Positions 25,494 through 43,202 of a stretch of DNA of 64,000 bases are shown here, piece after piece. The notes under the pieces are model-generated. The model was not told the origin of the DNA. It saw only the letters and a list, made by a program, of their open reading frames with translations, and searched no databases. The stretch covers positions 79,386 through 143,385 of the forward strand of contig JAWWOW010000025.1 in NCBI GenBank assembly GCA_033851265.1, given 5' to 3'. The DNA is from Frankiales bacterium (GTDB lineage Bacteria; Actinomycetota; Actinomycetes; JAWWOW01). A program made the position numbers and the translations under genes. The first letter of the stretch is position 1. Each line of letters begins with the position of its first letter.

Positions 25494-25590
25494 GCACGGT
25501 TAGGCCGGTTATGCGGTGAGGGGTACGGTTTTGCTCACCGGGATGCCGGAGCGACCGAGGTAACGACATGGCGCGGACGTTGAGCAGTGA

Positions 25591-26775
25591 GTGGGTACGT
25601 CGGTGAGCCACCCGACACTGCCGCGCCCAACGCTGGAGCTCGCGCTTCCCGATGAGATTCGTGACCTGATTTCGAAGGGCCGCGGCGCCGGTTTTCTGAC
25701 CTCCGAAGACATCGGCGCTGCGCTGGGCGCGGCCGAGCTTCCTCCGGAAGCAACCGACTCGGTGTTGCAATCGATCATTGACCAAGGCATTGAGATCGTT
25801 GACGCGGCGTTCGAAGACGACGAGCCCCAGCCGGCACCGGTAGAAGAGGATTCGGCGATCCGGGTGCCGACCTCGGACCCGGTGCGGATGTATCTGAAGG
25901 AGATCGGGCGCGTCCAGCTGCTGACAGCGGTGGAAGAAGTCGACCTGGCAACGCGCATCGAGGCCGGCTTGTTTGCATCGGAGAAGCTGACGCTCGACCC
26001 AACGGTCGGCGACGTTCTGCAACGCGAGCTCGAAGCCATTGAACGCGATGGGCAGATCGCGAAGAAGCGGCTGGTCGAAGCGAACCTCCGCCTTGTCGTG
26101 TCCATCGCCAAGCGGTACGTCGGTCGCGGCATGCTTTTCCTCGACCTGATCCAGGAAGGCAATCTCGGCCTGATCCGCGCGGTCGAGAAGTTCGACTACA
26201 CCAAGGGCTACAAGTTCTCGACGTACGCAACATGGTGGATCCGGCAGGCGATCACGCGTGCGATCGCTGACCAAGCACGGACTATTCGCATTCCGGTGCA
26301 CATGGTCGAGACCATCAACAAACTCGTGCGGATCCAGCGTCAGCTGTTGCAGGATCTCGGCCGCGAACCCACGCCCCAGGAGATCGGCAAGGAGATGGAT
26401 CTCCCGGCGGACAAGGTGCTGGAGATCCAAAAGATCAGTCAGGAGCCGGTGTCGTTACAGACACCGATCGGTGAGGAAGAAGACTCGAGTCTCGGCGACT
26501 TCATCGAAGACAACGACGCGATCGTGCCGATCGACGCGGCCAGCTTCATCATGTTGCAAGAGCAGCTCGACTCGATCCTGCACACCCTGTCCGAACGCGA
26601 GACGAAGGTCATCCAACTGCGGTTCGGCTTGGCCGATGGACATCCGCGCACGCTCGAAGAAGTCGGCCGAGAGTTCGGCGTCACGCGCGAACGCATCCGC
26701 CAGATCGAGTCCAAGACGCTGTCGAAGCTGCGGCACCCGAGCCGCTCGCAGCAGCTCCGCGACTACCTGGATTAG
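25591..26775 (+). CDS. RNA polymerase sigma-70 factor, group 1/2 (RpoD/SigA/SigB-like), immediately downstream of dnaG
   Basis: Regions 1.2 ([23 protein letters not shown]), 2 ([40 protein letters not shown]), 3 and 4 (HTH: [26 protein letters not shown]) are all present. Confidence 0.85.
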
Positions 26776-27149
26776 GAAAGTCAACCCAACGGTTGCTCCG
26801 TTCGGCCGATGCCAAATTGCCCAGCGTCGGCCAATCTGATCAAGCCACCGCCGGGGAGGGTGGCGGGGGACGTGTTGATCCGGGTGGTCCCCACCGACTG
26901 CGGGCCTACTGCCCTGTCCGTCCGCAGCACGGAGACGTTCGGTCGCCAGACCACCCGAGGAGCGAGTGGCGAGACCGACCCAGTTCCGGGAAGCCGGGTG
27001 TTCCATGCCCGGCCGGGGTGAGCGTGACCGGTCCGCACTGGGGGAGACCGCGCATCGCTGACCGACCCGGCGCAGCGCACGGGGGACTGCGACGGTGTCG
27101 CTCACCACGGCCGGGCACGGGATGCCCTCCACGAAACTGGAGGCATTGG
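26776..27149 (+). promoter_or_regulatory. Long (~375 nt) GC-rich, potentially structured leader or intergenic region upstream of the small secreted protein gene
   Basis: No credible ORF is present. Multiple local inverted repeats occur (e.g. gggtggtccccacc, ccgggaagccgg). The downstream ATG is preceded by CTGGAGG. Confidence 0.25.
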
Positions 27150-27620
27150 ATGCAGGGAAACGTACGACGCAAGGTCCTGGCTTTTGCTGCAGCGGCAACG
27201 CTCGGCATCGGTGGGCCGATCGCTCTGGGCGCAGTCTCATGGGAGGCCGTCGCAGGGGATCACAGCAATGGAACCAGCGGTACGAGTGGTGACCCAAGTC
27301 AGCCACAGCCGCTGAGCAATGCCGACCAGAACAGCGGTGGTGCGAACGGGCAGTGCCCGGGCGCTACCTATTGTTCGACCCGCGATGGGTCGGCGTCGCA
27401 GAATGGCAACGGCAACGGGAACGCCAATGGCAAGCCGTGTGCTGGCTGTGTTGGCAAGGCAGACAACAAGAACCCTCCGGGTCAGGAGAAGCAGGACCCG
27501 GCTGGGACGTTCCCGAACAACGGTTATGAGTGCGACAACAACAACGGGGTCGGCAAGACCAACCCGGCTCACACCGGGTGCGCTTCGGCGTCGCCGTCAC
27601 CGGAGCCCAACCCGTACTAA
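27150..27620 (+). CDS. Small secreted Gly/Asn/Cys-rich protein of unknown function
   Basis: ATG at 27150 with RBS CTGGAGG; signal peptide MQGNVRRKVLAFAAAATLGIGGPIALGA. The mature region carries GNGNGNANG repeats and 6 Cys (CPGATYC, CAGC, C...C). Confidence 0.5.
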   Translation: MQGNVRRKVLAFAAAATLGIGGPIALGAVSWEAVAGDHSNGTSGTSGDPSQPQPLSNADQNSGGANGQCPGATYCSTRDGSASQNGNGNGNANGKPCAGCVGKADNKNPPGQEKQDPAGTFPNNGYECDNNNGVGKTNPAHTGCASASPSPEPNPY

Positions 27621-27690
27621 ACCGCTAGGCGATTCGCGCGAAGCGGCCGGCAACCCCACGTTGCTGGCCGCTTTCGTGTGAACTAGGGGT

Positions 27691-28221
27691 GTGGCCCGCC
27701 TGCGTAACCTCCTCATCCGCCTGCGTGGTGGCGAGCCGTTGCCCGCTGGCGTGACCATGCCGCTGGAACGCCGGGAACGCATTTTGACCTGGGGTCGTGT
27801 CCGCGGCGGGGCCATCGCCGCCGCAACCGATGTCGGGCTGCGGATCGTCGGACCTGATCATGTGCCCACGCTGCATCGGTGGCACGAGATCGCTCGTGCT
27901 GTTTGGGACGACGGCGCACTCGAGGTGGAGGGCACCGACCGCACGGTCGTGAGGTACCGGATGCCGGAGCCGCGCGGCGTTCCGGCCGCGGTTCGCGAGC
28001 ACGTCACAGCGACCGTTGTGGTGAGCGTTCGCCATGAGATCGGCGCAGGGGTTGGCATCCGCGCGGTCGCGCGGCGCAACCTGTCGACCGGTGAACTCGT
28101 CTGGTCCGCCGTACCCGACCGGGGGCTCGACCCGGGTGACCCGCAGATCCGCGCACAGGGCGAGGCGCTCGTCGAGCGAGTACGCCGACGGTATGCCGGC
28201 GAGCGCGGTCAGATGATCTGA
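27691..28221 (+). CDS. Hypothetical protein (possible bacterial PH-like domain)
   Basis: A 176 aa ORF with coding-like composition; no recognisable motif. Confidence 0.4.
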   Translation: MARLRNLLIRLRGGEPLPAGVTMPLERRERILTWGRVRGGAIAAATDVGLRIVGPDHVPTLHRWHEIARAVWDDGALEVEGTDRTVVRYRMPEPRGVPAAVREHVTATVVVSVRHEIGAGVGIRAVARRNLSTGELVWSAVPDRGLDPGDPQIRAQGEALVERVRRRYAGERGQMI

Positions 28222-28236
28222 CGCAATCAGCCCGGT

Positions 28237-28677
28237 CTAGCCGGTGCCCTCGGTGCCGCTCGTCGTCCCGAGGATCTGGTCGGCCCGGGTGCCGAACCCA
28301 CAGACCTGGGCGAGGGGAACGGCTTGCTGACGCAGCAACCCCTCATTAGCGGTGGCACGCAGGGCATCGCGCTTTTCGAGTGCTGCGACGTACGCCGTGG
28401 CGCTGCCGGCCAAGGCTCGTGCCGGCTCCGCCACCTCGGTGGTGGCCGACGCCGCCGCGGACTCGAGCGTCTCAGCCGCCGTCTTGTTGCGTTCGAGATC
28501 CTCGGGAGTCGCCTTGCGCGGGTCGACGAGGACGACCTGACGGGCGGCCGCGGTCACGGCTGCGCAGTCGCGTTCGCTGTCAGTCAGCTTGATGTCACTG
28601 CTACCGCCGCACGCGGCCGCGAGGCCCAGGGCGAGGATGGGAACGAGCCGCACGAGCTGGTTCTGGGCGCGTCGCAT
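28237..28677 (-). CDS. Lipoprotein of unknown function, downstream of the S8 peptidase gene
   Basis: Signal/lipobox MRRAQNQLVRLVPILALGLAAAC-GGSS. The upstream part of the maximal ORF (to 29187) runs out of frame over the S8 gene and was rejected. Confidence 0.55.
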   Translation of the reverse strand: MRRAQNQLVRLVPILALGLAAACGGSSDIKLTDSERDCAAVTAAARQVVLVDPRKATPEDLERNKTAAETLESAAASATTEVAEPARALAGSATAYVAALEKRDALRATANEGLLRQQAVPLAQVCGFGTRADQILGTTSGTEGTG

Positions 28678-28712
28678 TTGCGCAGCGTAGCCAGCAGCCG
28701 GGTCTCGTGGGG

Positions 28713-29966
28713 CTAGCCCTGCCCCGAGCCGGCCCGGACGACGGAGACCATCCCAGCACCGAGTCCGGCGAGACAGGCCACGGCAACAGCCATCAAGCCG
28801 AGCGGAACGCCGCCGTCGTGGTGGGCGGGCGCAGACCGTAGGTCGTTGCTCGGGCTCGGTGACAGCGCGGCGGGTGGCGAGGTCATGCGGGGCAGCGGGC
28901 TGATCGTCTTGACCGCATTCGAGGCCGGAGGCTTGCTTGCTGCCGTCGCCTTGTGGGTGGGTGCCGCCGACTTCGTCGGTTTTGCTGTCGTGAATTTCAC
29001 GCCGAGTGCGGCCGCCGCGTCGATGCGACCGGACCCGCCCCCGGACACCGGGTGCGCAGTCCCGGTGATGCGGCTGACAACGTCGGAGGAGCTGTAGCCC
29101 TTGCCGAGCAGCAACGCCGCGAGACCCGAAACGTGCGGCGCAGCCATGGAGGTGCCGGCGAGCGCGGCGTACCCGCCGCCCTTCCACGCCGCGATGATGC
29201 AGTCGTGGCCGTCTGACGCGCAGTCCGCGCCACGCGTGTCACCACCAGGTGCGGCGATTGTCACGCCCTGGCCGCGCTGGCTGTACGACGCGAGGCTGCC
29301 GCTCGGTGCCGTCGCCGCAACGATGAGCGCTTTGCCGCCGTAGTTGTCGCCCACCGGCCGGTTGTCGTTGCCAGCGGCGAACACCACGATGATCCCGCGC
29401 GCCACCGCAGCCTGGACGGCTTGCGTCACGACGCCGTGGTTCTGCTGAGTGTCCGCGTCCTCGGGTGCCAGCGACAGGTTGATGACCTCCGCGCCGTGGC
29501 CCGTGGCCCACCTGATGCCCGCCGCGACATCGGCCGTCGACCCCGTGCAGTCATGACCGTCGTACTTGAGCACGCGCACGGGCAAGATCGTGGCTCTCGG
29601 CGCGATGCCCCACTCCTTGCCGGCGGCCGTCCCAGCCACGTGCGTGCCGTGCCCGCAGGCGTCACGGCTCTTGGATGTGGTCCGGCTGCACGCACCCCCG
29701 ATGCAGTCCGCACCGGTCATCACCCGCCCACTGAGTTCGGGGTGGCCCGCCTCGACCCAGGTGTCGACTATCGCGACGACGACACCTGAGCCTCCCCGGC
29801 CGGCGTTCTGGACGGAGGTGTTGAGGTGAACTTGGTGGAAGTTCCACGACCCCTGGCCGGTGCTCGGCGGCTGGCCGGCGAGCGCAGTGCCCGGCGTACC
29901 CCCGATGAGCAAGCCGAGGACCGCAACGAGCAAGGGCAAGAACACACGCCCCGGCTGTCGGGTCAT
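28713..29966 (-). CDS. S8 family (subtilisin-like) serine peptidase with a C-terminal transmembrane anchor (mycosin-like topology)
   Basis: Signal peptide; catalytic Asp (VVAIVDTWVEAGH), His (HGTHVAG) and Ser (GTSMAAPHVSG) motifs; a C-terminal Pro/Ala-rich linker followed by the TM helix LGLMAVAVACLAGLGAGMV. Confidence 0.8.
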   Translation of the reverse strand: MTRQPGRVFLPLLVAVLGLLIGGTPGTALAGQPPSTGQGSWNFHQVHLNTSVQNAGRGGSGVVVAIVDTWVEAGHPELSGRVMTGADCIGGACSRTTSKSRDACGHGTHVAGTAAGKEWGIAPRATILPVRVLKYDGHDCTGSTADVAAGIRWATGHGAEVINLSLAPEDADTQQNHGVVTQAVQAAVARGIIVVFAAGNDNRPVGDNYGGKALIVAATAPSGSLASYSQRGQGVTIAAPGGDTRGADCASDGHDCIIAAWKGGGYAALAGTSMAAPHVSGLAALLLGKGYSSSDVVSRITGTAHPVSGGGSGRIDAAAALGVKFTTAKPTKSAAPTHKATAASKPPASNAVKTISPLPRMTSPPAALSPSPSNDLRSAPAHHDGGVPLGLMAVAVACLAGLGAGMVSVVRAGSGQG

Positions 29967-30178
29967 CCAGGGCGCTCCTCTGCGAGATGCAGTGTGCGTA
30001 CTTCGCGTGCGAGGCCACCGCGCTCCGCGCCCACATCGTGGACGCAGACGTTATTGGTTGGTGTTTGGTGCCGCACTATGGGTCGGCGACGAGGCGACTG
30101 ACGCGCTCGTCCGGGTCCTCAGGGTACGGCGTTCCGCGCGGATTCGCAGCCCCCGGCGTGTCGGTCAGCCAGGGCTGT

Positions 30179-30475
30179 TTACGGGCCGCCGTCGCCGTTG
30201 TGGCTGCGCACCACGTCGGACAGGCCGCCGGTGAGTCGCGTTGAACCATGACCGCGGTGCGTGAGACCGCTAACCGAGTCGATGACAACGCGCCGCGCAT
30301 CGTCGACGAATCCGGCCGCTTGTGCCTGCAGCACACCGGCCGTTTCCTGCACCGCGGGGTTCTCCATGAGCTTGCGGGTGCCACGCGCAATCGCCTCGTA
30401 CCGCTCCCGTCCCGCCCGCGCACCGAGCACGTATCCGCCGGCGAAACCGATGATGAACGTGGCCTTGTAGCGCAT
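30179..30475 (-). CDS. Small hypothetical protein
   Basis: A 98 aa ORF starting MRYKATFIIGFAGGYVLGARAGRERYEA with an N-terminal hydrophobic helix. Confidence 0.4.
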   Translation of the reverse strand: MRYKATFIIGFAGGYVLGARAGRERYEAIARGTRKLMENPAVQETAGVLQAQAAGFVDDARRVVIDSVSGLTHRGHGSTRLTGGLSDVVRSHNGDGGP

Positions 30476-30629
30476 GGTGCCTCCGGGGCTGCTCTAGCGG
30501 ATCAACAGTGGCGTGGAACCGGCGTACCCCACCGGTCCCGACCGCACCCTACGGCTGTCTCAAGTCGGTCGCCGGACGTGGCGATTGAGGTAGCGTTTGA
30601 TCGCCCGCTGAGCGCGGGTTGCTGAGCAT

Positions 30630-30705
30630 TCCCGCGTAGCTCAATTGGCAGAGCATTCGACTGTTAATCGAAGGGTTCCTGGTTCGAGTCCAGGCGCGGG
30701 AGCCA
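30630..30705 (+). tRNA. tRNA-Asn (anticodon GTT)
   Basis: Manual cloverleaf: acceptor TCCCGCG/CGCGGGA, D-arm GCTC-AATTGGCA-GAGC, anticodon arm TTCGA-CTGTTAA-TCGAA, T-arm CCTGG-TTCGAGT-CCAGG, discriminator G plus an encoded CCA. Confidence 0.9.
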
Positions 30706-30711
30706 AAACTC

Positions 30712-30990
30712 TCAGCCGACGGCGCTCTCGTCCAGCTGCGCTTGGTAGGCCTGGTCGGCCACCCAGAAGCGTTGCCGCGCGGTCTCGGTCCGGGCCTCCG
30801 CAGCGACCAGCGCAGCGGGGTCGACCCGCCCTGGATCGCTCTCGAGCAGCCGGCGGAGTCGGTGCAGCTCGCTCGCGGCCACGTCGAAGTCGGCCAGGGC
30901 GGCGGCCCGCTGGGCTCGGGCGGCAAGCATGGGCGCGGGCAGCGTCGGCAGCGTCGGTGCAGCCACACTCCGGTCACGGAAACGCATCAC
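30712..30990 (-). CDS. Small hypothetical protein (weak call)
   Basis: A 92 aa Ala/Arg-rich ORF between the tRNA-Asn and the M36 gene. Confidence 0.25.
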   Translation of the reverse strand: MMRFRDRSVAAPTLPTLPAPMLAARAQRAAALADFDVAASELHRLRRLLESDPGRVDPAALVAAEARTETARQRFWVADQAYQAQLDESAVG

Positions 30991-31094
30991 GCGCGCACTC
31001 TAAGTCAACATGGGTGGTACGCCGACGCGGCACGCCGTACCTGAAACGACCGGTCACCCGCGGCCGGGTGCCGCGGGTGACCGTCGCGGTGCGT

Positions 31095-33992
31095 TTAGTG
31101 CGGCGAGCCGTAGACCTCGATCTCCGACATGTCCATGAACTGGCAGCCGGAGAAGTCGCCGGGGTCAGGAGCGTCCGGTCCGCACCGTTGCGGGACACCG
31201 CCGTCGCCACAGTCCGCCGGCCCCGTGCACGCGTCGCCGCTGAACGGCACCTGTGGGGTGATCATCGTGAAGCGGAGGTAGCGCACGTTGGTCACCGCGG
31301 TGGCCTTGAGCGCCACGCTGTTCAGGTGCCCGCGGTTGCCGGCGTAGAAGATGCCGGAACTGAGGTCCTTGAACAGCCCGACACCGGTTGTCGACACCTC
31401 GATGCGGTAGCGCCGCGTTGAGGCACTCCCGCCGTCACCACACGTAGCGGCCGGGTCCACGGCAACCTCGGAGATGTCGATCGCCGTCGGCAGCTTGATG
31501 GTGATGTGCTTCGGCACCGCCGTGCCGTCGGGCTGGTCGGTTGCACCGGTGTCGCTGCCCCAACCGGAGCCGAGGTTCTGGTCGATCGCACCGTTCGGGC
31601 CGCAGCCGAAGTTGGAGTAGTCAGGCGGGTCGAACTTCGTGACATCAGCACCGCCGAAGATCGATGCCCAGTCGCGGCGCAGCTGGAAGTTCTTCGTCTT
31701 CGAGGGTGTGCTGATCGTCATGCTCGGCACGACGTTGATGTCGAAGCCCGCCCCGATCGCGAAGACCTTCGGGTAGGTCCCATAGGTGATCCCGTTGATC
31801 GTGTAGTTGCCGGCGGCGTTGGTCGTCGCCGCCAGGTCGGCCCCGAAGCCGGAGTCGTGTCCAGCGAACGCAACCGTGATCCCCGGGATGGGGCTGCCGG
31901 TTTCTTGGTTGGTCACCAGGCCCTTCAAGGTGCCGGTCGGCGTGCCAGGCGCCGGCGGCAGGCTGAAGTCTTCTGCTGGTGTCACGTCACCGCCGTCGAT
32001 CGCGCCGGCGAAGTAACCCATGCCGCGATGAGCGAAGACGGTCCAGACGGTCTTGCTCCAGCGGCCGTCACCGACTGCGTCCGCCTGCAGGATTGCGTTG
32101 CGCATGTCGAGCATCGTGGGGTCCGCGGGCGAGAGCTCCATCGCGCGGGTGACGAGACGCTCAGCGGTGAACGAGCCGACCGCGGTGCGGAGGTCCCACA
32201 AGGTCTCCGCCCAAATCTCGCCCTCCGCGTGGACCTCGGGGAAGCCGATGACCTTGCCGTAGTCGCCGTAGGTGTAGCCGCCGGGGCCGGTGTCGGCGCC
32301 GCCCGGGCACGCGTCGTCGGTGCTGCCGACCGGGCAGTCGAGGGGTTGCGTCCGGAACAGGCTCTGGCCACCCGCGGTGTACAGGCCGATGGCCATCTCG
32401 CCCGGCGCCGAGGTGTCGGTCATCAAGCCTTGCCGGCCCAGGAAGTCGAGGGCATACCAGTCACTCCAACCCTCACCCATCGAAGCCGCCTGGATGCTGG
32501 CGATGGTCGAGTTGCCGTCCGAGTCAACGACGAGCCGGTTCGAGAGCCCGTGCGTGTTCTCGTGGTAGACGATCGAAGCCTCATCCGAGCTGTTGCCGGC
32601 AATGAACGGGTCTTCGTCGGGATAGGACAGGCCCGGCTCATGGAACAGGTACATCTGCATACGTCCCGGCGTACCGTCCGGCGGTGTCGAGAAGTTGGCG
32701 TTGTCGGTGTGGAAGAAGTCGGGGAAGCCATCGCCATTGACGTTGGCGCCGTCGATGTTCTCCCCGTTGACCGCGTCGGAGCCTTGGAAGTTCCCGGCGG
32801 CAGGGGTGAATCCGATCGGGTCCTTCGCCAGATGGTCGTGGAACTTGTTGATGAAGTAGAACAGCTGCGTGGCGCTCTGCGCTCGGTTGGTCTTCCAGGA
32901 GAACGCCTTGTCAGGGTTCCACGAGCAGGGATATCCCGGCGGGCATGCGGGGCCCTGGAACTCCGTGAACGGGTAGTTGAAGTTGCTCGTGTTGTCCTTC
33001 GTCGTCTCCTCGTTGGCGGACGACGTATTGGAGTCGTTGACGTCGCTGTAGACGTGGGCGTTGGGACCACTCAACGTGGTGGCGCCTTGGTTGAGCCACT
33101 GGTCCAGTGTCACGCGATGGCGCGTGCCACCCAACGGCGCGTTCGGGTAGTTCTCGAGCACGTCCGCTGTGTCGTTGTTGACCAGGCTCCGGCGGTAGAG
33201 CAGCCGGCTGTCGGTTGCGTCGATGACGGAGAGGAACATCTCGCTGCCCGAGCCGACGATCGTCTGGTAGGCGAGACGGGTGCCCTCGACCGTGCGGAAG
33301 TAGACCTGCTTGGTCGCGCTACCGCCGGACACGGCTGCGTCGCGGCGTGCGGCAGCGATGGCTTGCGATGCGCTGATGCGTGCTGTTGACGTGGCGCGGT
33401 CGAAGTTGGCGAGTGGCGAGCCGACAACGTTGACCAGCCGGCCATCCTTGGTGACAGCGGCCTTCAAACCATTCCCGAACACCGGAACGCCCGCGATCCG
33501 CTGCTGGAAGAACAGGTGATGTGTGCCCTCGATGTCGGCGTAGTCACGGACGAGGTTCAACGCCTGGACGGCTTGAGTGGTGAGACCTAGCGCGGTCGCG
33601 TTCGTCGTGACATAGCCGAGCGCGATCGCCTGCGGTGTTGCCTTGCTCGGGCTGGTCAGGAATCCGTCCGTGCGACCGATCATGCGGACGGTGCCGGTCA
33701 GTGGGTCGATTGACAGCAGACCCTGATTACCGAGCTTGCTTCGGAGTGCCGCGGCCGCCGCCGCCGCGGAGGCAGCGCGCTGTGGGGCGAGGGCGCGAAG
33801 CGCCTTCTGCGCTGCTGGCGTCTTCCGGGCGTCGTACAGCGCCTTCTTGGCGTGCGGCTGGGACGCTTGCCCGCGGCTGCCCTCGGCCCGGTCGGTGACG
33901 GCTCGCGCAGCCGGTGCACCGGCCGCGACGGACGCGACCATTCCCGCGATGACGATGACGCGTAGCGAGCGACGAGCGATTGGCTTGCGCAT
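31095..33992 (-). CDS. Secreted M36 (fungalysin-like) zinc metallopeptidase with an FTP propeptide, a carboxypeptidase-regulatory-like domain and an F5/8-type-C (discoidin) domain
   Basis: Signal peptide MRKPIARRSLRVIVIAGMVASVAAGAPAARA. The zinc motif YHENTHGLSNRL (HExxH) plus GEGWSDWYALDF match the M36 signatures HEYTHG / GEGWSD. The C-terminus has a GNYTINGITYGTY beta-sandwich and a discoidin-like domain. Confidence 0.8.
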   Translation of the reverse strand: MRKPIARRSLRVIVIAGMVASVAAGAPAARAVTDRAEGSRGQASQPHAKKALYDARKTPAAQKALRALAPQRAASAAAAAAALRSKLGNQGLLSIDPLTGTVRMIGRTDGFLTSPSKATPQAIALGYVTTNATALGLTTQAVQALNLVRDYADIEGTHHLFFQQRIAGVPVFGNGLKAAVTKDGRLVNVVGSPLANFDRATSTARISASQAIAAARRDAAVSGGSATKQVYFRTVEGTRLAYQTIVGSGSEMFLSVIDATDSRLLYRRSLVNNDTADVLENYPNAPLGGTRHRVTLDQWLNQGATTLSGPNAHVYSDVNDSNTSSANEETTKDNTSNFNYPFTEFQGPACPPGYPCSWNPDKAFSWKTNRAQSATQLFYFINKFHDHLAKDPIGFTPAAGNFQGSDAVNGENIDGANVNGDGFPDFFHTDNANFSTPPDGTPGRMQMYLFHEPGLSYPDEDPFIAGNSSDEASIVYHENTHGLSNRLVVDSDGNSTIASIQAASMGEGWSDWYALDFLGRQGLMTDTSAPGEMAIGLYTAGGQSLFRTQPLDCPVGSTDDACPGGADTGPGGYTYGDYGKVIGFPEVHAEGEIWAETLWDLRTAVGSFTAERLVTRAMELSPADPTMLDMRNAILQADAVGDGRWSKTVWTVFAHRGMGYFAGAIDGGDVTPAEDFSLPPAPGTPTGTLKGLVTNQETGSPIPGITVAFAGHDSGFGADLAATTNAAGNYTINGITYGTYPKVFAIGAGFDINVVPSMTISTPSKTKNFQLRRDWASIFGGADVTKFDPPDYSNFGCGPNGAIDQNLGSGWGSDTGATDQPDGTAVPKHITIKLPTAIDISEVAVDPAATCGDGGSASTRRYRIEVSTTGVGLFKDLSSGIFYAGNRGHLNSVALKATAVTNVRYLRFTMITPQVPFSGDACTGPADCGDGGVPQRCGPDAPDPGDFSGCQFMDMSEIEVYGSPH

Positions 33993-34134
33993 AACCCAGC
34001 CCCCCCGATCGGCAGATGCCAGCGGGCAGGATCCTGTACCCATTTGGGATGGTTCGTCCAGAGGTTGGCGTGGACATGGGTCCCGTGAGGCGATTGTGCT
34101 CGTCGTAGAGTCGCGGCTCGCGGGTCATCCCGCC

Positions 34135-34208
34135 GGGGCAGTAGCTCAGCCGGTTAGAGCAGGGGACTCATAATCCCTGGGTCGCAGGTTCGAGTCCTGC
34201 CTGCCCCA
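34135..34208 (+). tRNA. tRNA-Met (anticodon CAT), elongator type; CCA not encoded
   Basis: Cloverleaf: acceptor GGGGCAG/CTGCCCC, D-arm GCTC-AGCCGGTTA-GAGC, anticodon arm GGGGA-CTCATAA-TCCCT, T-arm GCAGG-TTCGAGT-CCTGC, discriminator A. The 1:72 pair is G:C, and the anticodon-stem pair adjacent to the loop is A:T, so it is not an initiator. Confidence 0.9.
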
Positions 34209-34240
34209 CTAAGTGCCTGCCCCACTAAGCCCCCACCAAG
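34198..34240 (+). repeat. Tandem duplication (16 bp x ~2.7) of the tRNA-Met 3' end; att-like integration scar
   Basis: TGCCTGCCCCACTAAG occurs at 34198-34213 (overlapping the tRNA T-stem and acceptor 3' half) and is repeated exactly at 34214-34229, then partially (CCCCCACCAAG) at 34230-34240. Confidence 0.8.
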
Positions 34241-34593
34241 CGTTTCCGGGCGCTCGCCCACGGCGAGCCACTGACAACTCAGCAAATCGTTGAGCAGCTC
34301 CTACGGTCTCCATCGAGACCGTCCGTCGGAAGCTGGCCTCGCTGCCAGCGGTCAATGTCAGGCCAGGGGTGAGAGCCGTCGACGCTTCTCCCGCACACAT
34401 CGGGCGCGATAGCGCCTCTACGGCGCTGCCGCCTGCGCCCTGACGCGGCAAGGCAGTGTGTTGTTGGGTCCCGAAATTTAGGAGGTCAGGCGAGGTACCC
34501 GCCTGTTCGTCAGAGTTGACGGGGTGCTATCGGCGTGATCGCACCCTGATAATCGAACGGTCAAAGATTGCGCGTTCGTAGGGAGACTCGTAG

Positions 34594-35328
34594 ATGCTTG
34601 CAAGCCTGTTGCCCGGCCTGCGGGATATCCGGACTCCACTAACGGTTGGGTACCTCTACCTGCTACTCGGCTGGATTTGGTTCGCGGATGACATCCCACG
34701 GGCGAGGCCGAATGGCGATGGGCTAATTGCACGCCTCTTCGACCTTGGTGACGCTCTCGGCAGGCCGGCGGCGCTAGCAGCGCTGAGTTTCGTCGCTTAT
34801 GTACTGGGAGCGCTCCTGACAATCTCCTCGGAACGCGGGTTCGGCCGCTTAGTGCTCGACACACGGACACCTGCGATTGGCATCGACGCCAGACAGACTC
34901 GTTTTGAGATGTTCGAACGGCTTAGGGAGACTCACGGACGAATACTTGAGCACGCGAGTGGGTGGTCGCCCGAGCAGATGAGCCGATTGGATGATGAAAT
35001 CGGTCGTGCGCAAAACGCCAATGCCGCCGACCTGAGGACCCGACTTCTGGTTGCGAATCAGGAGCTCTATAGCGAGTACGACCGACTTGCGGCTGAAGCT
35101 GAGTTTCGACTGAACCTTGTTCTCCCGCTGCTAATGACCGGCATCACCGCATCCGCCGAGTTGTCGCTGTGGTACCTCCCCGCCTCAGCCGCCGTCGTAC
35201 TGCTACTTGCATTTCAAGGTTTGGCCCGCAGAGCTGAAGCGCAATCAGTGATTTCTCGTGCAGTCCTCTCGGGAACTATTCGACATCCGATGGAGACACT
35301 CCTGGCGCGCTTTGATGACGCCTCTTAG
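34594..35328 (+). CDS. Hypothetical membrane protein (TM helices at both ends), first gene of the lower-GC block
   Basis: A 244 aa ORF preceded by GGGAGA. There are hydrophobic segments at the N- and C-termini and a helical middle region. Confidence 0.45.
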   Translation: MLASLLPGLRDIRTPLTVGYLYLLLGWIWFADDIPRARPNGDGLIARLFDLGDALGRPAALAALSFVAYVLGALLTISSERGFGRLVLDTRTPAIGIDARQTRFEMFERLRETHGRILEHASGWSPEQMSRLDDEIGRAQNANAADLRTRLLVANQELYSEYDRLAAEAEFRLNLVLPLLMTGITASAELSLWYLPASAAVVLLLAFQGLARRAEAQSVISRAVLSGTIRHPMETLLARFDDAS

Positions 35329-35336
35329 AAGTGGCG

Positions 35337-36635
35337 TTAGTCCCAGTTCGGCGCGTGGTCATCGACGAACGCCTGTTCGCCCCAAACCGGGTCCTCGCCG
35401 GGAAAGCCCCGAGGCGGTTCAGGTCCATCGAACAGCCATTGATCAGGCGTAGGGCCAGCCGCACCAATGGCGAAGCACCAACCCGTGATCGTTCGTCGCC
35501 ATCCAAACCAAGCTTGACCACCCGTGCGTACCAGCATCTCCACGCCGTGCGGCTCGCTCAATCCGGAGGAACTGAAGTCCAACACCATCGCCAAGTCGGC
35601 CTTGTAGCGACCATCGTTGTTGTGCCGGCCCATTTGACAAACAGCTAGCCATCTCAGCGCCGCCTGCGTCTGAGTGAACTCGCGCCGATCAAGTTGTCGC
35701 CCTTGATCGTCTGTGCCTTGCACACGCGCAAGGTCACGAAGTCGGTTTGCGGCTGCGGTAGCGGCGTCTATCTCCTGCACTTGATGCTTGCGGAACGCCT
35801 TCACAACGCCGAGCGCGGCTCGGAGGGAATCCGTCTGCGCAACTTGGTACAGCCACGACCCGGCGAACGCTGACACCTTCCGTATCCGAAAACGCAGTCC
35901 CAGAACGACTGCGAGCTTCGCGCGGAGCCTCTGTGGTCGCGAGTCGTTACGGAACCCAATGCGCATAAATAGCTGCTCGTAGGCCGCGTAGAGACTGAAC
36001 GCATAGACGTATGGGATGACAGAAACGACCAACCAAACGGGCAGAGCTAGCTCTCGCAGGCTTTCGTGCTTGTCGAGCTCATGCCAATGCCGGGCAACAT
36101 GACTTGTGACATAGGCGAACAGGAGAAGTCCGGTCAGGGCTAGTAAGAAGTCTGCCACCCGCGCGACCAGGAGCGTCTCTTTGGTCCTGGCAGCGACCAC
36201 GCCAAGCAGGGTCACGAAGACCAGGATGGGCAGTAGAAGAAGTTCTGCTACCCGAGAAAGCACAACGAAGTTGAGGTAAAAGTCCAGCAACGCGGATACC
36301 TGCACGGCTCGGATCAGAGTTCGGCGAAAGTAATGTTCTTCTTTCATCGCCCTGTCGAGATTGACGAGGAACGTCAGCCCTGGGACGACGAACCAAAAGG
36401 CTGTGTCGGTCGCTTGGTTTAGGTCCCAAAGGTCGAGGGAGCGGGCAGCTAAGACCGCCCCTCCAACATTCGCGGCTAGCAACAACACCGGCACGATGAT
36501 CGTCGCGTTCGCTGTGATGCTTACAAACGAACGGATGGATGCTCGACCACTACGTGTTGTCATTACGCCAGCGACGACGACCAACAACCAGATCAGGAGC
36601 GCCTGCTGCCGATTGTTCGGCATGTCCCGTTGCAC
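35337..36635 (-). CDS. Polytopic membrane protein (~7 TM) with a ~150 aa C-terminal soluble domain; last gene of the putative nuclease operon
   Basis: A 432 aa ORF with strong TM periodicity in the N-terminal 280 aa and a Trp-rich C-terminal domain. It lies 93 bp downstream of the nuclease gene on the same strand. Confidence 0.5.
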   Translation of the reverse strand: MQRDMPNNRQQALLIWLLVVVAGVMTTRSGRASIRSFVSITANATIIVPVLLLAANVGGAVLAARSLDLWDLNQATDTAFWFVVPGLTFLVNLDRAMKEEHYFRRTLIRAVQVSALLDFYLNFVVLSRVAELLLLPILVFVTLLGVVAARTKETLLVARVADFLLALTGLLLFAYVTSHVARHWHELDKHESLRELALPVWLVVSVIPYVYAFSLYAAYEQLFMRIGFRNDSRPQRLRAKLAVVLGLRFRIRKVSAFAGSWLYQVAQTDSLRAALGVVKAFRKHQVQEIDAATAAANRLRDLARVQGTDDQGRQLDRREFTQTQAALRWLAVCQMGRHNNDGRYKADLAMVLDFSSSGLSEPHGVEMLVRTGGQAWFGWRRTITGWCFAIGAAGPTPDQWLFDGPEPPRGFPGEDPVWGEQAFVDDHAPNWD

Positions 36636-36728
36636 CCCCGGTAATTCATCAAAGGGCTGTTGCTGAAAAGGCTGTAGCGGAGCACTGACAGTTCCCCGGC
36701 ATCTCGCAAGGGAGATGCCTTGTGTGCG

Positions 36729-38452
36729 CTACGGACTTCCGAGCACCTCTTCGCCAGCGGTTGGGCCGTCGGTAGTACCAGACACCGCTGCCGCGTCGTC
36801 CTGTGATGACAATGCGGTGGAGACAAGCTCATTGGGGATGTTTGGCTCCGTGAGCTGTCCCGGCTCAGGCTGGCGCAGTTTGGGCGGTGCGGGTGACCAT
36901 CCCTTTACCGACTGGACAACGCCCTTGTAGAAGGAATCGAGCAGGTCCAGCACGGAACCCACGAATGACCCTTTGCCCTGTCCGCGCTTGCTGCCACTCG
37001 ACTTGGAAAGCGTGAGGGTGAAGGAACGTATCTCCCGCTTCTGCTCGTCCAGCAACAGCGACGGGTCCTCACGGACCTTGCGCAACAGGTCGGACCTGCT
37101 TGTTCCGCGCGACCAAGGTGTGAACGCGTCGATACGCAGATCATCAGGGGCGTCTTTCAACTGGCGCAGCAACCAGTTGATACGCGTTAGCGGTCGTCCC
37201 TCTTTGGGAGCGTCCACCGACAGTGACGCCGAGACCTGTCCGGCCCGCAGATCGGCGGTCAGCACGACAGGACCAACGGTGTTGGGAACTCGTAGAGAGC
37301 CCGTGAGCGTGCCCTTGCTCACCAGCGATGTCATCTGTTCTTGCATCCGCGAACCCGGATTTGCTAGGTCACGGCGTGACAGCGCAGGCAGCACCTCGAT
37401 GCCCAGTTGGCGTCCGAGACGCATCCCCGCGTAGCGCACGAGCTGCTCCCACTTCGCAGCAACTTCGGTAACGCCCTTGTCGGTCGCACGGACAGTTCCC
37501 GCACTGATGGCGTCGCGCACGGTCACCCACGACGTGCCCATGTCATCGAAATCGACAAGCCCGGACTTCGGATGTTCCAGATACCGGATGAATTCGGAAA
37601 GGATGTATGCCTGGTCAGGATCGCTCACCGAACTGTTGACCTTGTGCATAATCGCTTCGGTGTGAATCTGACTCCACGACAAATGATGCAGCGCAACCTT
37701 GCGCAGCTTCCGCTTGTCCACCGCCGTGGGATGCACACCGCTGGCCGTTGGTATCTCATTGGATATTGAGAGCAGCGCATTGAACCCCTGCTCGCGTGCC
37801 ACGTCGAGGTAGCACTCCAATTGCTCAGCACGGAGGTCGTTCTTTCCGGTCTTCACCTCAACCAGCGCAACCCATGAACGCTGGCCGCGCGTTACGCGGA
37901 TAAGGCCGTCTGGGTAGACCCGCTTGCCGTTCAGATCGAACGGCACCTCGATGAACGTCTCGATAGTCCCGGCAGGGGCATCCAGGCGTGCGGTCACCGA
38001 CTTGCCGAACTCCCGAACCGCGCTCAGCACGGCCAGTAGCGCCGACGTGCCGCGTCTCTCCTGCTCATCAGCGCCCGAGATGCCCGTGGTCGGGATCAGG
38101 CGTGCTGCGTGCCAACTTTCCTCTGCCACCGCGTCTCCCCGTGCTGCCAGTCCGTCGCGTAACGGCGACCGTAGACCGAAAGGTCTCCATTGAGCACGTG
38201 GGCAGGTCAGCCAGTCCGTCTGCAACGTCGCGTACGTTCCGTTCGGGTCGAGCCGACGAAAGCCGACTCGGTGCCGATCTGGCGGATCACCCACTGCGCG
38301 ACTGTTGCGGCGACTGGCATATCGCTGGTCGAAGACATTGAAGCCGACAGCTACGAGCGGGAAGGCAGCTGGCAGTTGCTGGTCATCTGGCAGTGCGTGG
38401 TCAATCGGCCACGCATGGTCGTTGTGCGCAGGTTGCCGATGAACGTGCATGT
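36729..38452 (-). CDS. RecB/Cas4-like PD-(D/E)xK nuclease-domain protein (~574 aa) with extra N- and C-terminal domains; start uncertain
   Basis: A complete RecB-family motif set is present: motif I E (TIETFIEVPFD), motif II D (YPDGLIRV), motif III ExK (WVALVEVKTGKN) and a QxxxY motif (RAEQLECY). The conserved N-terminal segment is WHAARLIPTTGISGADEQERRGTSALLAVL. The ATG at 38452 was chosen; the maximal ORF extends to 38603. Confidence 0.6.
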
Positions 38453-38572
38453 GGAACGGCGGTGTGCGTGAGCGAAACACCGAAACGCACGCCTGAGAGC
38501 GCCAGTTCGCCTCCGCGTCGGTCTGTTCGCGGCGAGACCATAAGGAGTAGTCGTCGCTGCCTTGAACGCGTG

Positions 38573-39514
38573 CTACTCGCCCGTGTGACGGGACGCAACC
38601 CACCCGGCCCCAGCGGCTGCCAGTAGGGCAAGCATCGCGGGCGCGAACTCTCGTGCTGCTAGTAAGACGATGCCGATTAGCAGCATGACGAATAGCAGGT
38701 ACCGCGCACGCCCTCCAATCACCGCCCCCGCTTCATCGTCAACCGACCTGCTGGCCACGGCTGCCGGGACCAGCACTTGCGCTGACGCCGGGACAGCCGT
38801 CTGACGCTCCCGTGTTGACGATTTAGATGCCTGACCTCCTGGTCGATTGAGCATCAGCACGAGAACAACAGCCCAGGACCACAACATCAATAGCGCAGTC
38901 GCCGCACACCAAACGGCGGTCGTCGTGCTGCTTTCCAGTTCTGAGACCGTTGGTGGCAACGAGTTATCGCCGCCAGGGATGTGAGAAAACGCTTGCAGGA
39001 TCACGACGACGATGTAGAGGACCCACCAACCATTGAGCAAGGCGCGTCGAAGCCCGCGCACTCGACCCGACTCTGATTCCCACAACTCGATCATCGCTCG
39101 CCGAGCCATCGCATAGCCGTACACCGGAATGAAGGGCGAGCGGGCAAGGCGACGTTGTGACTTCGGAGCACGTGCTGCTCCTTGTGACACGTACAACCAA
39201 CGGAAGAATAGAAGCAGGGAGACGAACGAAAGCAAGCCAGCGATGTCGAGAAAGTCACTTGCGACGACCAGCGCGTGGGGCTTAGGAACTCCGCCGTACT
39301 CGGAGTTGTTGCAGAGAATGGTCAGCACAGCGTCCGGGTTCTGACATGCCTCACTGATGGGTCCTATTCGTGAGCGGCCATCCAGTGCGTCGAGGTCATG
39401 GAGACCAGCCACGCCATTGGCGGCACTGACCAGGTAGCAAACAGCACACCCGACCAGACAAACCCATAAGACGAGGGGCAATCGTGAACGCCCTTGGCTC
39501 GCCATGACACCCAT
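38573..39514 (-). CDS. Membrane protein (4-5 TM), first gene of the putative nuclease operon
   Basis: A 313 aa ORF with hydrophobic helices (LPLVLWVCLVGCAVCYLV..., WWVLYIVVVILQAF..., AVWCAATALLMLWSWAVVLVLML..., YLLFVMLLIGIVLLAA...). It lies ~120 bp upstream of the nuclease gene on the same strand. Confidence 0.5.
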   Translation of the reverse strand: MGVMASQGRSRLPLVLWVCLVGCAVCYLVSAANGVAGLHDLDALDGRSRIGPISEACQNPDAVLTILCNNSEYGGVPKPHALVVASDFLDIAGLLSFVSLLLFFRWLYVSQGAARAPKSQRRLARSPFIPVYGYAMARRAMIELWESESGRVRGLRRALLNGWWVLYIVVVILQAFSHIPGGDNSLPPTVSELESSTTTAVWCAATALLMLWSWAVVLVLMLNRPGGQASKSSTRERQTAVPASAQVLVPAAVASRSVDDEAGAVIGGRARYLLFVMLLIGIVLLAAREFAPAMLALLAAAGAGWVASRHTGE

Positions 39515-39537
39515 GATGGTGGGAAGGTGAGTGGTTT

Positions 39538-40203
39538 ATGAAGCTTGATCAGAAGGCTGCTGATCGCCTGGTCGCCATGCTCGCGAAGGCGGACGACCTG
39601 CTGAAGACGTACAAGAGCCCTCCTTCGAACTTCATTGGATTCGAGGGGTGGGTAGATAGCGAGTTGTTCGCTGAGTGGCGAGCGCAGAGTCTCGTTCTGC
39701 TTCGCCAGTCACTCGGCCGAGAGCATCAGTACACGCGGTCCTTTCAAGAGGGAACGGAGAAGGAGAGCGTGCCGAGCTCAGTCCGGCACGGAATAGGGAT
39801 ACTCCGAGCAGCTTCGGAGGACCTGTCCAACGGCTATCTGTTCGAAGCCCGATCCCTCATCGAGGCTGAGGTCTTCGATGACTTCTTGCAGATGGCGCAA
39901 CATCTCAACCAGCAGGGATACAAGGATCCGGCCGCATCCTTGGCAGGAGCAGTACTCGAGGACGGCCTTCGCCGCATCGCCACAGGCCACGAAGTGCCAT
40001 TCTCAAAGTCAGACGGCCTTGACGCGTTGAACAAGGCGATTGCCAGCCATGGGATTTATAACAAGCTGACCCAGTCGAAGGTGGACTCGTGGAGAGTCAT
40101 CCGCAATGCGGCTGATCATGGCAACTTCGGGGAATACGGCACCGAGGACGTGACCGCCCTTATCGAAGGAGTCGTCGACCTGCTTGGCCGCCATCTAGTG
40201 TGA
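39538..40203 (+). CDS. HEPN-motif protein (DUF4145/Abi-like, predicted RNase), divergent from the nuclease operon
   Basis: A 221 aa soluble helical protein, preceded by GGAAGG, carrying the Rx4-6H HEPN motif near the C-terminus (WRVIRNAADHG). Its local GC of ~60% (counted over 39538-39600) is lower than the backbone. Confidence 0.5.
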   Translation: MKLDQKAADRLVAMLAKADDLLKTYKSPPSNFIGFEGWVDSELFAEWRAQSLVLLRQSLGREHQYTRSFQEGTEKESVPSSVRHGIGILRAASEDLSNGYLFEARSLIEAEVFDDFLQMAQHLNQQGYKDPAASLAGAVLEDGLRRIATGHEVPFSKSDGLDALNKAIASHGIYNKLTQSKVDSWRVIRNAADHGNFGEYGTEDVTALIEGVVDLLGRHLV

Positions 40204-40310
40204 CGGACGTCGCCTGCGCACCATTCGGCGGCGCCGACTGCTTGAACTGCCCGCCGTCGGCGCTTTCAACTGTTGTTTGAACTGCAACGCGCGTCACTAC
40301 GATTGGCACC

Positions 40311-40958
40311 ATGACCGAGTCCGGCGCCTGGTCCGAACCACTGGCGGTCGGGACGTTTGTTCTCGCGCTAGCCACTCTGCTGTTGGTCCTAGTCACGGGT
40401 ATCCAGCTGCGCCTGGCGCGCCGCACAGCAAATCTGGCCATACGACCGCTGCTCGGGGAGGTACCCGAGCCGTTGGAGGCCGCCGACATCGAGAGCGTCA
40501 GCTTTGGCGCACCCGGGCGGAACCGCGAGGAATTGCGGGTCGGTGAATTTTTTCTCCGCCGCGGCGAAGACAGCGACGTCTTTCAGGTGTCTGTTTCTTT
40601 CCGCAACGTTGGCTCAGGCCCGGCAGTGATTCTGGGTGCTGGCACGGATCCGGCCGTCACCGCCAGTTGCAAGGTGTCCCGGATGTATGTGCCCACAGGA
40701 GAGAACGTACGCGTCAACGTTTCCGCACTCGTGACGGCCGGTGCTGAGGGCGCGAGGCATCTTGCAGACTGGCGTACAGAGGGCGGGGCGAACTTTACGA
40801 TTTTCATTACCTACGCCGATGTCGACGGATCTCAAACGATGACAACAAGGGCAGTGGTCCGCGAATACGCCGTCCATACTCCCTTCGTGGAACGTGTCGA
40901 AATCTGGCGGCCGGGCGCAAAGGAGCCGTACTTGGCCTCAGGTGAGTGGGGCGGCTAG
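40311..40958 (+). CDS. Membrane-anchored hypothetical protein (N-terminal TM plus a beta-rich extracytoplasmic domain)
   Basis: A 215 aa ORF with the TM helix VGTFVLALATLLLVLVTGIQL. Confidence 0.4.
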   Translation: MTESGAWSEPLAVGTFVLALATLLLVLVTGIQLRLARRTANLAIRPLLGEVPEPLEAADIESVSFGAPGRNREELRVGEFFLRRGEDSDVFQVSVSFRNVGSGPAVILGAGTDPAVTASCKVSRMYVPTGENVRVNVSALVTAGAEGARHLADWRTEGGANFTIFITYADVDGSQTMTTRAVVREYAVHTPFVERVEIWRPGAKEPYLASGEWGG

Positions 40959-41054
40959 CCGGCATATAAGTGGCGATAGCGAGCGTGCGTTCCGGCAATA
41001 TCGTGCGTTCCGTGATCCTGATTCGGAGCGCCGCCTGCCGCGCGGATGTAAGTC

Positions 41055-41339
41055 GTGACGAATCCATATCTCACTACGCTGTCCGGCGTGGGTCGCCTGA
41101 GCCGCGCCGACTGGGGCTGGATCATTGGCTCGCTCGGGCTCGGTCTCGTGATGACGATCTGGACGGGGGACTGGGGCATATGGCTGGAACCGCATTGGTG
41201 GATCGGTGCCGCTGTTACCTCCCTGCTTGGAGGTGTTCTCGCTTCTCTGCTACTCGTGCGTAAGGCGCGACGACGGGCGAAGCGACCATCCGCGCCGCCT
41301 GTTCCTCTGGCCGCGCCCCGTTGGCAGCGGCGCCGCTAA
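41055..41339 (+). CDS. Small membrane protein (2 TM, Trp-rich, basic C-terminal tail)
   Basis: A 94 aa ORF containing WGWIIGSLGLGLVMTIW...WWIGAAVTSLLGGVLASLLLV. Confidence 0.35.
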   Translation: MTNPYLTTLSGVGRLSRADWGWIIGSLGLGLVMTIWTGDWGIWLEPHWWIGAAVTSLLGGVLASLLLVRKARRRAKRPSAPPVPLAAPRWQRRR

Positions 41340-41773
41340 CCCGATGCAGTTTCGGTCCAGAAGTGGCGCTCTCACACGTGGGTCCCGGTGTTATCGAGCG
41401 GATTACCGCTCCCGTCGCGCGTGGCGGAGCATCGTGAAGGCAAGGGCAGCGAAGCCGCCGCTGAACAACGCACCGAGACCAGCTATCTCAGCTTGCTCCT
41501 AGTCTGTCCGGAGGACACCAATCAACGCCGCGACTAGCAAGAAGATGGCGAACGGGCCAGTCCACAACCATGACCATCGGAAGAGCCCTACCTGAAAGCG
41601 GACCGCAGCTTGCATTGCTCCGGTCAGTCGCGCCATGCCGCCCTGCTCCCGATTGATCGCAAGATCCTTGCATGACTTTCGTAAAGCGACCGCACGGTAA
41701 CTGCCGATCTGCGCGAGGGGACCGTTGTTAGGGACGGGGCTCAGCGAGTTCTTGCTCAGGGGAGAATCACAGC

Positions 41774-42049
41774 GTGAGTATGTCCGACTGGCTGGATCAT
41801 CGCCGGGGCAGGGTTGGCTTAGCAGCAAGCGTCTTCGGCGCTGGCATCGGCATTTTCGCCTCTGGCAATCGGCTACTGGGAACTCCGCTCATCGTTATGG
41901 GAGCGATCGGCACCCCCGTTGCCATTGGCAGCTACGTGCGTCACGCCCGCCGCGACGAAACCGATGAATCCAACGTGTTGTTTGGAGTCCCGGCGCCGAA
42001 TGCGACCAACACGGAGGACCCTCCGAGCCACGTAAGGCGGATTGATTAG
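41774..42049 (+). CDS. Small membrane protein (2 TM)
   Basis: A 91 aa ORF with hydrophobic segments LAASVFGAGIGIFA and LIVMGAIGTPVAIG. Confidence 0.3.
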   Translation: MSMSDWLDHRRGRVGLAASVFGAGIGIFASGNRLLGTPLIVMGAIGTPVAIGSYVRHARRDETDESNVLFGVPAPNATNTEDPPSHVRRID

Positions 42050-42465
42050 CCAGTCGCGAAGTGCCACTCCCGAGCACGGCGTCCGGCGGCCCCTTGCGGC
42101 CTGATTGCGTACCGTGGATCCCGTGTCAGGGTGGAACAGCGGCAACAAGAGGTTCTGGACGCGCCACCGTCGAAGTGTCCGCACCAGTCGGCAGCTCGCT
42201 CAGGAAGCCGTCGATCGGTTAGCGAAGGTCAAAGAGGACCTCACGGGGGACCCCCACGACGACACGGCACGTGACGTGCCCTACTTGAGGCAGACGATTG
42301 AGTCGGCCTCCGACCCTCAAGTGCAGCAGCAGGACCAAGCCCGCCGCACCCATGCGGGACAGCGGGAGCGCCGGATGGGACGCCTACGGGCGCGGAATCA
42401 GCGCGACCGGTAGGTGGCGTGAGCGTGCGAAGAGTGACTGACAAAACCACGCGTAGGCTTGCCGC

Positions 42466-43020
42466 GTGCGGGGGTGGCTGAGCGTGGCGTTGGTCACCGC
42501 TGTGCTCGTTAGCGGCTGCGCGAGCGACGGACATTCCACGTTGGCGATTCCCCGGCCCACACTGCCCGTGGGGTTACCGACGCCAGCCGTGACGCTGCCC
42601 AGCGGAACGCCGACCGTGCTCCCCACCAGCCGTCCGACGATCACCGTCACGCGGCCCAAGTATCACGTCAGCCTGGCGACCTTCGCGGGCGGCTGGACGG
42701 CTCACACACGTTTCCTTCGCATCAGTCGGGCCGGTGTCGGCAAAGAGTGGGTGGATGACGGGTGCTGCCACCACGAGTTCCACCTCACCTTTGAGCTCTC
42801 GCGGGTCTGGGGGTCACCAGACAACGCGATCGCCGAGTTTGTGATCACAGCGTTCACGCCTGGTGAGCCGGGCTACTTCGACGCCCAACACCCTGCTCCA
42901 CGCGTCGGGCAGAAGGGGCAACTCCGGGTGCGCGAGCACACCATCGTGGAAACGGCCACGGACACACGGTTCTGCTCAGACGGGCACGCGTTACCCCAGC
43001 CAAACGTCTGCGGCGTCTAA
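42466..43020 (+). CDS. Lipoprotein of unknown function
   Basis: Lipobox LVSGC followed by a Pro/Thr-rich linker and a Cys-containing beta domain. Confidence 0.5.
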   Translation: MRGWLSVALVTAVLVSGCASDGHSTLAIPRPTLPVGLPTPAVTLPSGTPTVLPTSRPTITVTRPKYHVSLATFAGGWTAHTRFLRISRAGVGKEWVDDGCCHHEFHLTFELSRVWGSPDNAIAEFVITAFTPGEPGYFDAQHPAPRVGQKGQLRVREHTIVETATDTRFCSDGHALPQPNVCGV

Positions 43021-43200: not shown

Positions 43201-43202
43201 GT

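Follow-up and report, generated by a model that had tools for sequence, protein, structure and literature searches.

A tRNA-Met gene in the window (the whole 64,000-nucleotide stretch of Frankiales DNA that we analysed) is followed by two extra, partial copies of its own 3' end. We conclude, with a probability of about 0.6, that these copies are two local microduplications at a decayed tRNA-Met att junction and not products of site-specific recombination. The sequence-only reading of this stretch had taken the array as an att-like scar of integrase-mediated insertion. It was right about the site, since integration does occur at the 3' end of tRNA-Met in this lineage, but the integrase mechanism fails on the length of the copies, on the spacer between them and on the crossover region. 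The array is most likely an ordinary feature, one more case of phenomena already known, here from an uncultured actinomycete.

The tRNA-Met (anticodon CAT) occupies 34135-34208 of the plus strand, as called by ARAGORN and by Rfam (RF00005, 73.6 bits). The gene is intact, does not encode CCA and is not an initiator because of its G1:C72 pair. The repeat unit, TGCCTGCCCCACTAAG, takes in the final 3 nt of the T-stem, all 7 nt of the acceptor 3' strand and the discriminator A, and continues into 5 nt of trailer (CTAAG). Unit 1 (34198-34213, plus strand) completes the tRNA-Met with its first 11 nt, and unit 2 (34214-34229, plus strand) is an exact copy of it, which bears out the 16-bp head-to-tail duplication originally reported, the copies being 100% identical. 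The degenerate third copy (34230-34240, plus strand) is real as well. It reads CCCCCACCAAG and matches at 9 of 11 positions, or at 10 of 11 in the register CCCCACYAAGC at 34220-34241, where Tandem Repeats Finder (TRF) returns a period of 11 and 2.0 copies; it has CCCCA-CCA where units 1 and 2 have CCCCA-CTA. Only 11 and 6 nt of the tRNA are found in the adjacent copies, with a spacer of 0 nt.

Unit 1 leaves the tRNA-Met intact, and the extra copies belong to the 3' trailer that maturation removes. In the predicted minimum-free-energy fold the 5' acceptor strand pairs with copy 2, which is only a hint that tRNA-Met maturation might be affected. The tRNA-Asn gene at 30630-30702 (plus strand), the conserved partner of the tRNA-Met at this locus in relatives and in Micromonospora, encodes its CCA (…GCGGGAG-CCA; 30700-30705), where the functional tRNA-Met copy has CTA (34209-34211); among the copies of the tRNA-Met end, CCA is present only in the degenerate third unit.

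The tandem repeat is not due to chance. The window contains two exact tandem duplications with a period of at least 12, compared with 0.017 expected from Markov-1 simulations, and among its TRF arrays with a score of at least 50 the TGCCTGCCCCACTAAG array is the only one with 100% identity. Among 58 tRNAs in 2.5 Mb of fetched loci, this tRNA-Met is the only one with a copy of its own 3' end just downstream. The other exact duplication lies at 19659-19700, where 3.4 copies of a 12-nt unit, AGCCGCCCGCCA, stand in tandem, the first two of them exact, indicating that microduplication is not unique to the tRNA locus. Neither duplication has flanking microhomology, and the TGCCTGCCCCACTAAG repeat cannot be extended by even 1 nt on either side (34197 is c and 34213 is g; 34230 is c and 34214 is t). 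The duplicated segments share almost one right end, at +5 and +6 past the end of the tRNA, and the two duplication events fall within one 30-nt stretch. An exact search of genome and metagenome contig collections with a 27-mer (tRNA 3' end plus CTAAG) gave 0 matches, the source contig itself included. Among viral contigs, a 22-mer matched one unrelated AT-rich phage tRNA array, and matches to the 16-mer lacked a tRNA context.

Exact-protein look-ups of the window genes returned only the window's own strain. A search with the housekeeping sigma-70 gene yielded one useful relative (89% identical; contigs L175 and L176), which is collinear with 16196-31007 of the window at 71-84% nucleotide identity; the same gene likens the window's organism to Mycobacteriales/Frankiaceae-like metagenome-assembled genomes. 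Synteny at the tRNA-Met is absent from the more distant sigma-70 relatives L182 and L183. In the window an M36 fungalysin-type peptidase gene (31095-33992, minus strand) lies between tRNA-Asn and tRNA-Met, in an interval (31008-34099) in place of which the nearest relative has just 72 nt. Its best homologues are 62-64% identical and labelled Gaiellaceae, and its GC3 of 0.86 is host-like; the gene may be a separate gain, or may have been lost in the relative. We tried it as a synteny anchor in genome contigs, metagenome contigs and a set of 5.8 billion proteins, and discarded it: the best matches were again those at 62-64%, and a tRNA-Met lay beside the gene in none of the 26 best genome loci scanned. 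A strong GC-rich palindrome at 31047-31086, between the stop codon of the M36 gene and an adjoining 91-aa ORF, gave spurious sub-threshold Rfam microRNA matches on both strands and is probably a bidirectional terminator.

The relative identifies the integrase that uses this site. On L175, tRNA-Asn and tRNA-Met are 400 nt apart and the tRNA-Met ends in …GAGTCCTGCCTGCCCCACTAAGCGTTTCCGCAGGTCA, in one copy; in both the attL and the attP of the relative the tRNA end reads …CCCCACTAAGCGTTTCCG…, again in a single copy, and units 2 and 3 of the window are missing. On L175 and L176 a tyrosine integrase gene on the opposite strand has its stop codon 17 nt past the tRNA-Met, the final TCA being the stop. 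It is followed on L175 by a 190-aa ORF, an HTH_17 (Xis-like) gene, Phage_zn_bind_3 and a 512-aa protein with a winged-helix domain, and the contigs of the relative end 5.2 kb into this element, which is its own and different. A further contig (L186) carries an identical integrase in the attP configuration, with only the 3' 50 nt of the tRNA and then different DNA, the far arm of the element. It matches the tRNA from GGACTCAT, in the anticodon loop, onwards. In the window, the 50 nt at 34164-34213 (plus strand) start in the anticodon stem/loop, take in the rest of the tRNA and CTAAG, and match L186 4004-4053 at 100% by blastn; they correspond to the att identity segment. This comparison bears on the expectation that an empty site in related strains would carry a single copy: the one relative found does have a single copy, but its site is occupied and not empty.

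Integrase homologues of ~60% identity adjoin tRNA-Met in one metagenomic AICE (L177) and in the Micromonospora genomes L178-L181, in elements that carry Xis, RepSA, FtsK/SpoIIIE and GntR modules, the pSAM2-type AICE architecture. Together with the integrase of L175/L176 and the attP of L186, these homologues establish tRNA-Met as the attB of an identifiable integrase family, in agreement with the site proposed at the outset. Integrase relatives in IMG/VR target another tRNA. One Micromonospora genome (L178; GCA_049847265.1; 405-517, 2106-2488 and 11117-11225) has a full tRNA-Met and two partial copies that run from the anticodon loop to the 3' end, the copies lying 8.7 and 2 kb apart, with a 120-aa integrase remnant beside one partial copy. 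This genome is an example of accretion and decay of AICEs at the conserved tRNA-Asn/tRNA-Met locus. No tandem copy is present at the outgroup att sites, namely the three tRNA-Met copies of L178 and the tRNA-Arg sites of two family members that target that tRNA (L187, L188). Because none of the other att sites examined has a tandem copy, we take the single copy to be ancestral.

The sequence just past the array also resembles the relative's element. The 13 nt past the tRNA (CTAAG…CGTTTCCG) match the int-proximal arm of the element, and homology with the element ends with GCGTTTCCG (34240-34248, plus strand), the first 9 nt of the 17-nt motif GCGTTTCCGCAGGTCAG. The full motif is a direct repeat on both attP arms of L186, once directly after the tRNA-like part and once 63 nt upstream of the core; on the reverse complement of L186, in tRNA orientation, the two lie at 1443 and 1556. 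It is also found at L175 15756. The GCGTTTCCGCAGGTCAG repeats are candidate arm-type integrase or Xis binding sites. Sequences related to the motif are present in the trailers and far arms of L178 (GCCGTTTCCCCAGCTCA; GTGTTTCCGCTGGT), and the tRNA-Arg-targeting members have GCGAAACCGCAGGTCAG in the matching position. The 9 of 17 nt of the motif present after the array may also belong to an identity segment shared by attB and attP.

Directly after the repeat array, at the 3' junction of the tRNA-Met, a compositional break begins. The foreign block (34249-46900) spans ~10-12.6 kb and is clearest, by GC and GC3, from 34.25 to 44.4 kb. Its GC content is 0.611 over 34249-44400, compared with 0.651-0.675 in all other 10-kb segments. 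Nine of the ten block genes have a GC3 of 0.61-0.74, mostly 0.61-0.71, and the tenth has 0.80, compared with 0.80-0.86 in flanking genes. Deviant composition starting from a tRNA 3' end is what is expected of a tRNA-linked island. The ORFs of the block are mostly orphans, with Pfam matches to DUF4328 and DUF6782/DUF8575 only, and PADLOC and PHROGs scans of the ten block proteins gave no matches; nor did blastn of the block against a plasmid database. A 624-aa protein (36729-38603, minus strand) has an EVK motif and a sub-threshold match to VRR_NUC (E = 0.09), which suggests a PD-(D/E)XK nuclease fold. A 221-aa protein (39538-40203, plus strand), with no Pfam, PADLOC or PHROGs match, has an R-x4-H motif (RNAADH) reminiscent of HEPN domains.

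Comparison of the block with the relative's element by tblastx and tblastn gave only noise, with no protein similarity. The two do have in common an intergenic motif of ~45 nt (…ATAAGTGGCG…GGGTCCCGGTGTTATCGAGCGG), present in three plus-strand copies in the block, each upstream of a plus-strand ORF (40964-41007, 41357-41401 and 43052-43096), and once in the far arm of L186 (5455-5505); the second copy includes a 20-nt exact match to L186 5485-5504. The motif has no Rfam match and could be an operator or promoter common to mobile elements of the community.

No integrase is found among the JGI Pfam calls, which cover ~21-58 kb of the window, and no Xis, Rep or Tra genes are present in the window. 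An integrase remnant was likewise not found: tblastn of the proteins of the relative's element against the window gave E values of at least 0.09, and a family HMM built from 80 homologues, which detected the 120-aa remnant in L178 as a positive control, gave a best E of 1.4 over all six frames of the 64 kb. Neither pattern search nor local alignment found a second copy of the tRNA 3' end in the 64 kb that could serve as attR, and the best local alignments of a 58-nt att segment, which would mark a displaced tRNA fragment at the far end, stayed within the shuffled null. The copy marking attR that the sequence-only reading had proposed to look for elsewhere in the window was thus not found.

Downstream of the array, the exact hairpin already described at 34303-34322 (plus strand; ACGGTCTC-CATC-GAGACCGT, 8-bp stem) was recovered. 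We rejected it as a terminator, as it has no T tract and no match in a consensus scan, and by our own estimate (~0.08) an exact 8-bp stem in the 385-nt spacer is only mildly unexpected. A further exact hairpin with a 7-bp stem, not previously described, lies at 34252-34268 (plus strand; GCTCGCC-CAC-GGCGAGC) and also lacks a T tract. Logan contigs of the window's strain break at 30648, in the tRNA-Asn, and at 34165-34170, in the anticodon loop of the tRNA-Met. We considered att heterogeneity as the cause and rejected it, as both tRNAs are affected; the breaks probably reflect tRNA k-mers common to genomes in the metagenome.

Taken together, the window reads …GAGTCC, then TGCCTGCCCCACTAAG twice, CCCCCACCAAG and CGTTTCCG, followed by GGCG, compared with …GAGTCCTGCCTGCCCCACTAAGCGTTTCCGCAGGTCA in the relative. 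The 16 + 11 = 27 extra nt sit between CTAAG and CGTTTCCG, and both parts copy the sequence immediately upstream. Under the microduplication reading, and most parsimoniously, an 11-bp tandem duplication of CCCCACTAAGC would have come first, followed by one T-to-C change in the distal 11-bp copy and by a recent 16-bp duplication that is still exact; both this order and the molecular mechanism are inferred. The extra copies would have arisen by a replication or repair error, either polymerase template switching or slippage, or fill-in and end joining of a staggered break. Trivial slippage sits poorly with the absence of microhomology, the near-identical right boundary and the CCA in place of CTA in unit 3. 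Consistent with microduplication, the copies are head-to-tail without a spacer and the homologous site is single-copy, in one close relative whose site is occupied; the lack of flanking microhomology is atypical of simple slippage. Defining features of att repeats are absent: the copies begin in the T-stem or acceptor stem and do not contain an identity segment of at least ~45 nt with the crossover region, they do not flank an element, and no integrase adjoins the tRNA.

[quoted passage not shown] We lean modestly towards such a fossil attL over an attB that was never occupied, because of the arm match, the presence of GCGTTTCCG on a non-chromosomal arm, the compositional break at this point and the ~45-nt motif in common with L186. 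If the flank is a fossil attL, CTAAGCGTTTCCG is element-derived; a native trailer reading CCAAGCGTTTCCGGGCGCTCG… would instead make unit 3 and the sequence downstream native. Unit 3 could also be a displaced native tRNA end instead of a mutated duplicate, and the match of 13 nt past the tRNA may simply lie within the identity segment that attB and attP normally share. The shared right boundary and the occurrence of two events in 30 nt hint at a site-specific cause. We nevertheless regard it as distinctly improbable that the microduplications are footprints of aberrant att activity, in which failed integrase or excisionase reactions make fixed breaks 5-6 nt past the tRNA that are then repaired by fill-in, or that they were selected. 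In the selection version, the 27-nt insert shifts the arm-type motif ~2.5 helical turns from the core and could immobilise the island or block further integration. If the footprint or the selection version were true, att-site microduplication would be a recognisable domestication step of tRNA-linked elements.

The alternative closest to the original claim is that units 2 and 3 are remains of separate att copies, either attR or inter-element att sites, from successive integrations at the tRNA-Met, fused when later deletions took out the elements and the greater part of every att copy. The tRNA-Met is a real integration site at which partial tRNA arrays do form, as in L178 with its three copies and integrase remnant, an island lies immediately downstream, a motif of 20-45 nt is common to this island and the far arm of the relative's element, and the CCA of unit 3 against the CTA of units 1 and 2 is what one would expect of a displaced native 3' end. 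However, at least two illegitimate deletions would be needed, each confined at both ends to ~20 nt of the att repeats and with left ends that almost coincide, at junctions without microhomology. The fragments also lack the anticodon-loop crossover region that the integrase family duplicates, units 1 and 2 do not differ at any position, trailer included, and no element DNA lies between the units. The claim that an integrase duplicates exactly this part of the tRNA does not fit the family itself, in which att identity extends from the anticodon loop over at least 50 nt, compared with units of 16 and 11 nt. Repeated integration and excision, invoked to explain adjacent copies, does not account for them either: proper excision leaves one copy, the relative has single copies at both attL and attP, and the window has neither integrase nor attR. 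We therefore consider fused att remnants unlikely. A somewhat better case, though still a doubtful one, can be made for a native attB that was never occupied, with CTAAG…CGTTTCCG as chromosomal sequence, plain slippage as the source of the copies and the low-GC block acquired by an unrelated route. The att identity segment of pSAM2 is reportedly 58 bp. [quoted passage not shown] The window shows neither an attR nor any trace of an integrase, and the island has no protein similarity to the relative's element. Against this, GCGTTTCCG begins a motif found on both attP arms, one of which is never chromosomal, family members with another target tRNA have related motifs, and the compositional break starts exactly at the tRNA junction.

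Two further explanations carry little weight. The array would be the excision footprint of a transposon or casposon-like element with a 16-nt stagger, or a filled-in staggered break joined by Ku/LigD-type end joining, and fill-in of a 5' overhang would, by inference from target-site duplication mechanisms, yield an exact head-to-tail copy without microhomology. We see no terminal inverted repeats and, among the Pfam-annotated genes of ~21-58 kb, no transposase or Cas1; 16-bp target duplications are unusual, and the 11-nt second unit needs another such event, making this origin very unlikely. An assembly or sequencing artefact is almost certainly not the cause. The DNA comes from a metagenome assembly, and one library may underlie both assemblies in which we find the array, but the same 32-nt array is present in contigs of two different pipelines (the JGI metagenome contig Ga0467035_0000054, which includes the window, and one Logan contig, both of the window's strain), and reads and typical k-mers are far longer than the repeat.

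The wider significance of two microduplications at a decayed att junction is small, and lies in a well-delimited example of the decay of a tRNA-linked integration site in an uncultured actinomycete. The tRNA-Met att site is available for comparison in three states: occupied (attL), free (attP) and, with no integrase, as a likely fossil that has undergone microduplication. The three come from samples that appear, from their accession numbering, to belong to one study. The example also advises caution, in that a short repeat of a tRNA 3' end beside an island does not in itself qualify as an att repeat; what is diagnostic is the crossover region, in this case the anticodon loop, together with element DNA between the copies.

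Among known systems, simple duplications by slippage, template switching or end joining resemble the array in their exact head-to-tail copies and in the single copy of related sequences, with the 12-nt repeat at 19659 as an example from the same window; they differ in that the array lacks microhomology and that its two events nearly share a right boundary at an att junction. Tandem accretion, as in AICESav3728/3708 of S. avermitilis (PMC2440964) and in L178, likewise places several tRNA 3' copies after one tRNA, and the integrase can be lost or truncated. The copies there are at least 44-80 nt long, start at the anticodon loop, keep their arms and lie 2-9 kb apart, compared with 16 and 11 nt and no spacer in the window. 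Like the tRNA-linked islands catalogued by Islander (PMC4383910), the window has a block of foreign composition starting from the 3' end of a tRNA gene, whereas those islands have a regenerated tRNA, a displaced tRNA fragment at the far end and an encoded integrase, of which the displaced fragment and the integrase are missing here. With respect to AICE/pSAM2-type att sites, the window lacks an integrase, Xis, Rep, Tra and attR, and its repeat comprises 11 nt of tRNA in abutting copies, whereas att copies flank kilobases of element DNA. The likeness to these sites lies in the tRNA-Met itself, which carries an integrase of this family in the nearest relative and RepSA/FtsK-type AICEs in Micromonospora, in the position of the repeated sequence inside the 50-nt attP-identical stretch, and in the fragment of the arm motif after the array. 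Overall, the locus works like an AICE/pSAM2-type tRNA att site and probably descends from one.
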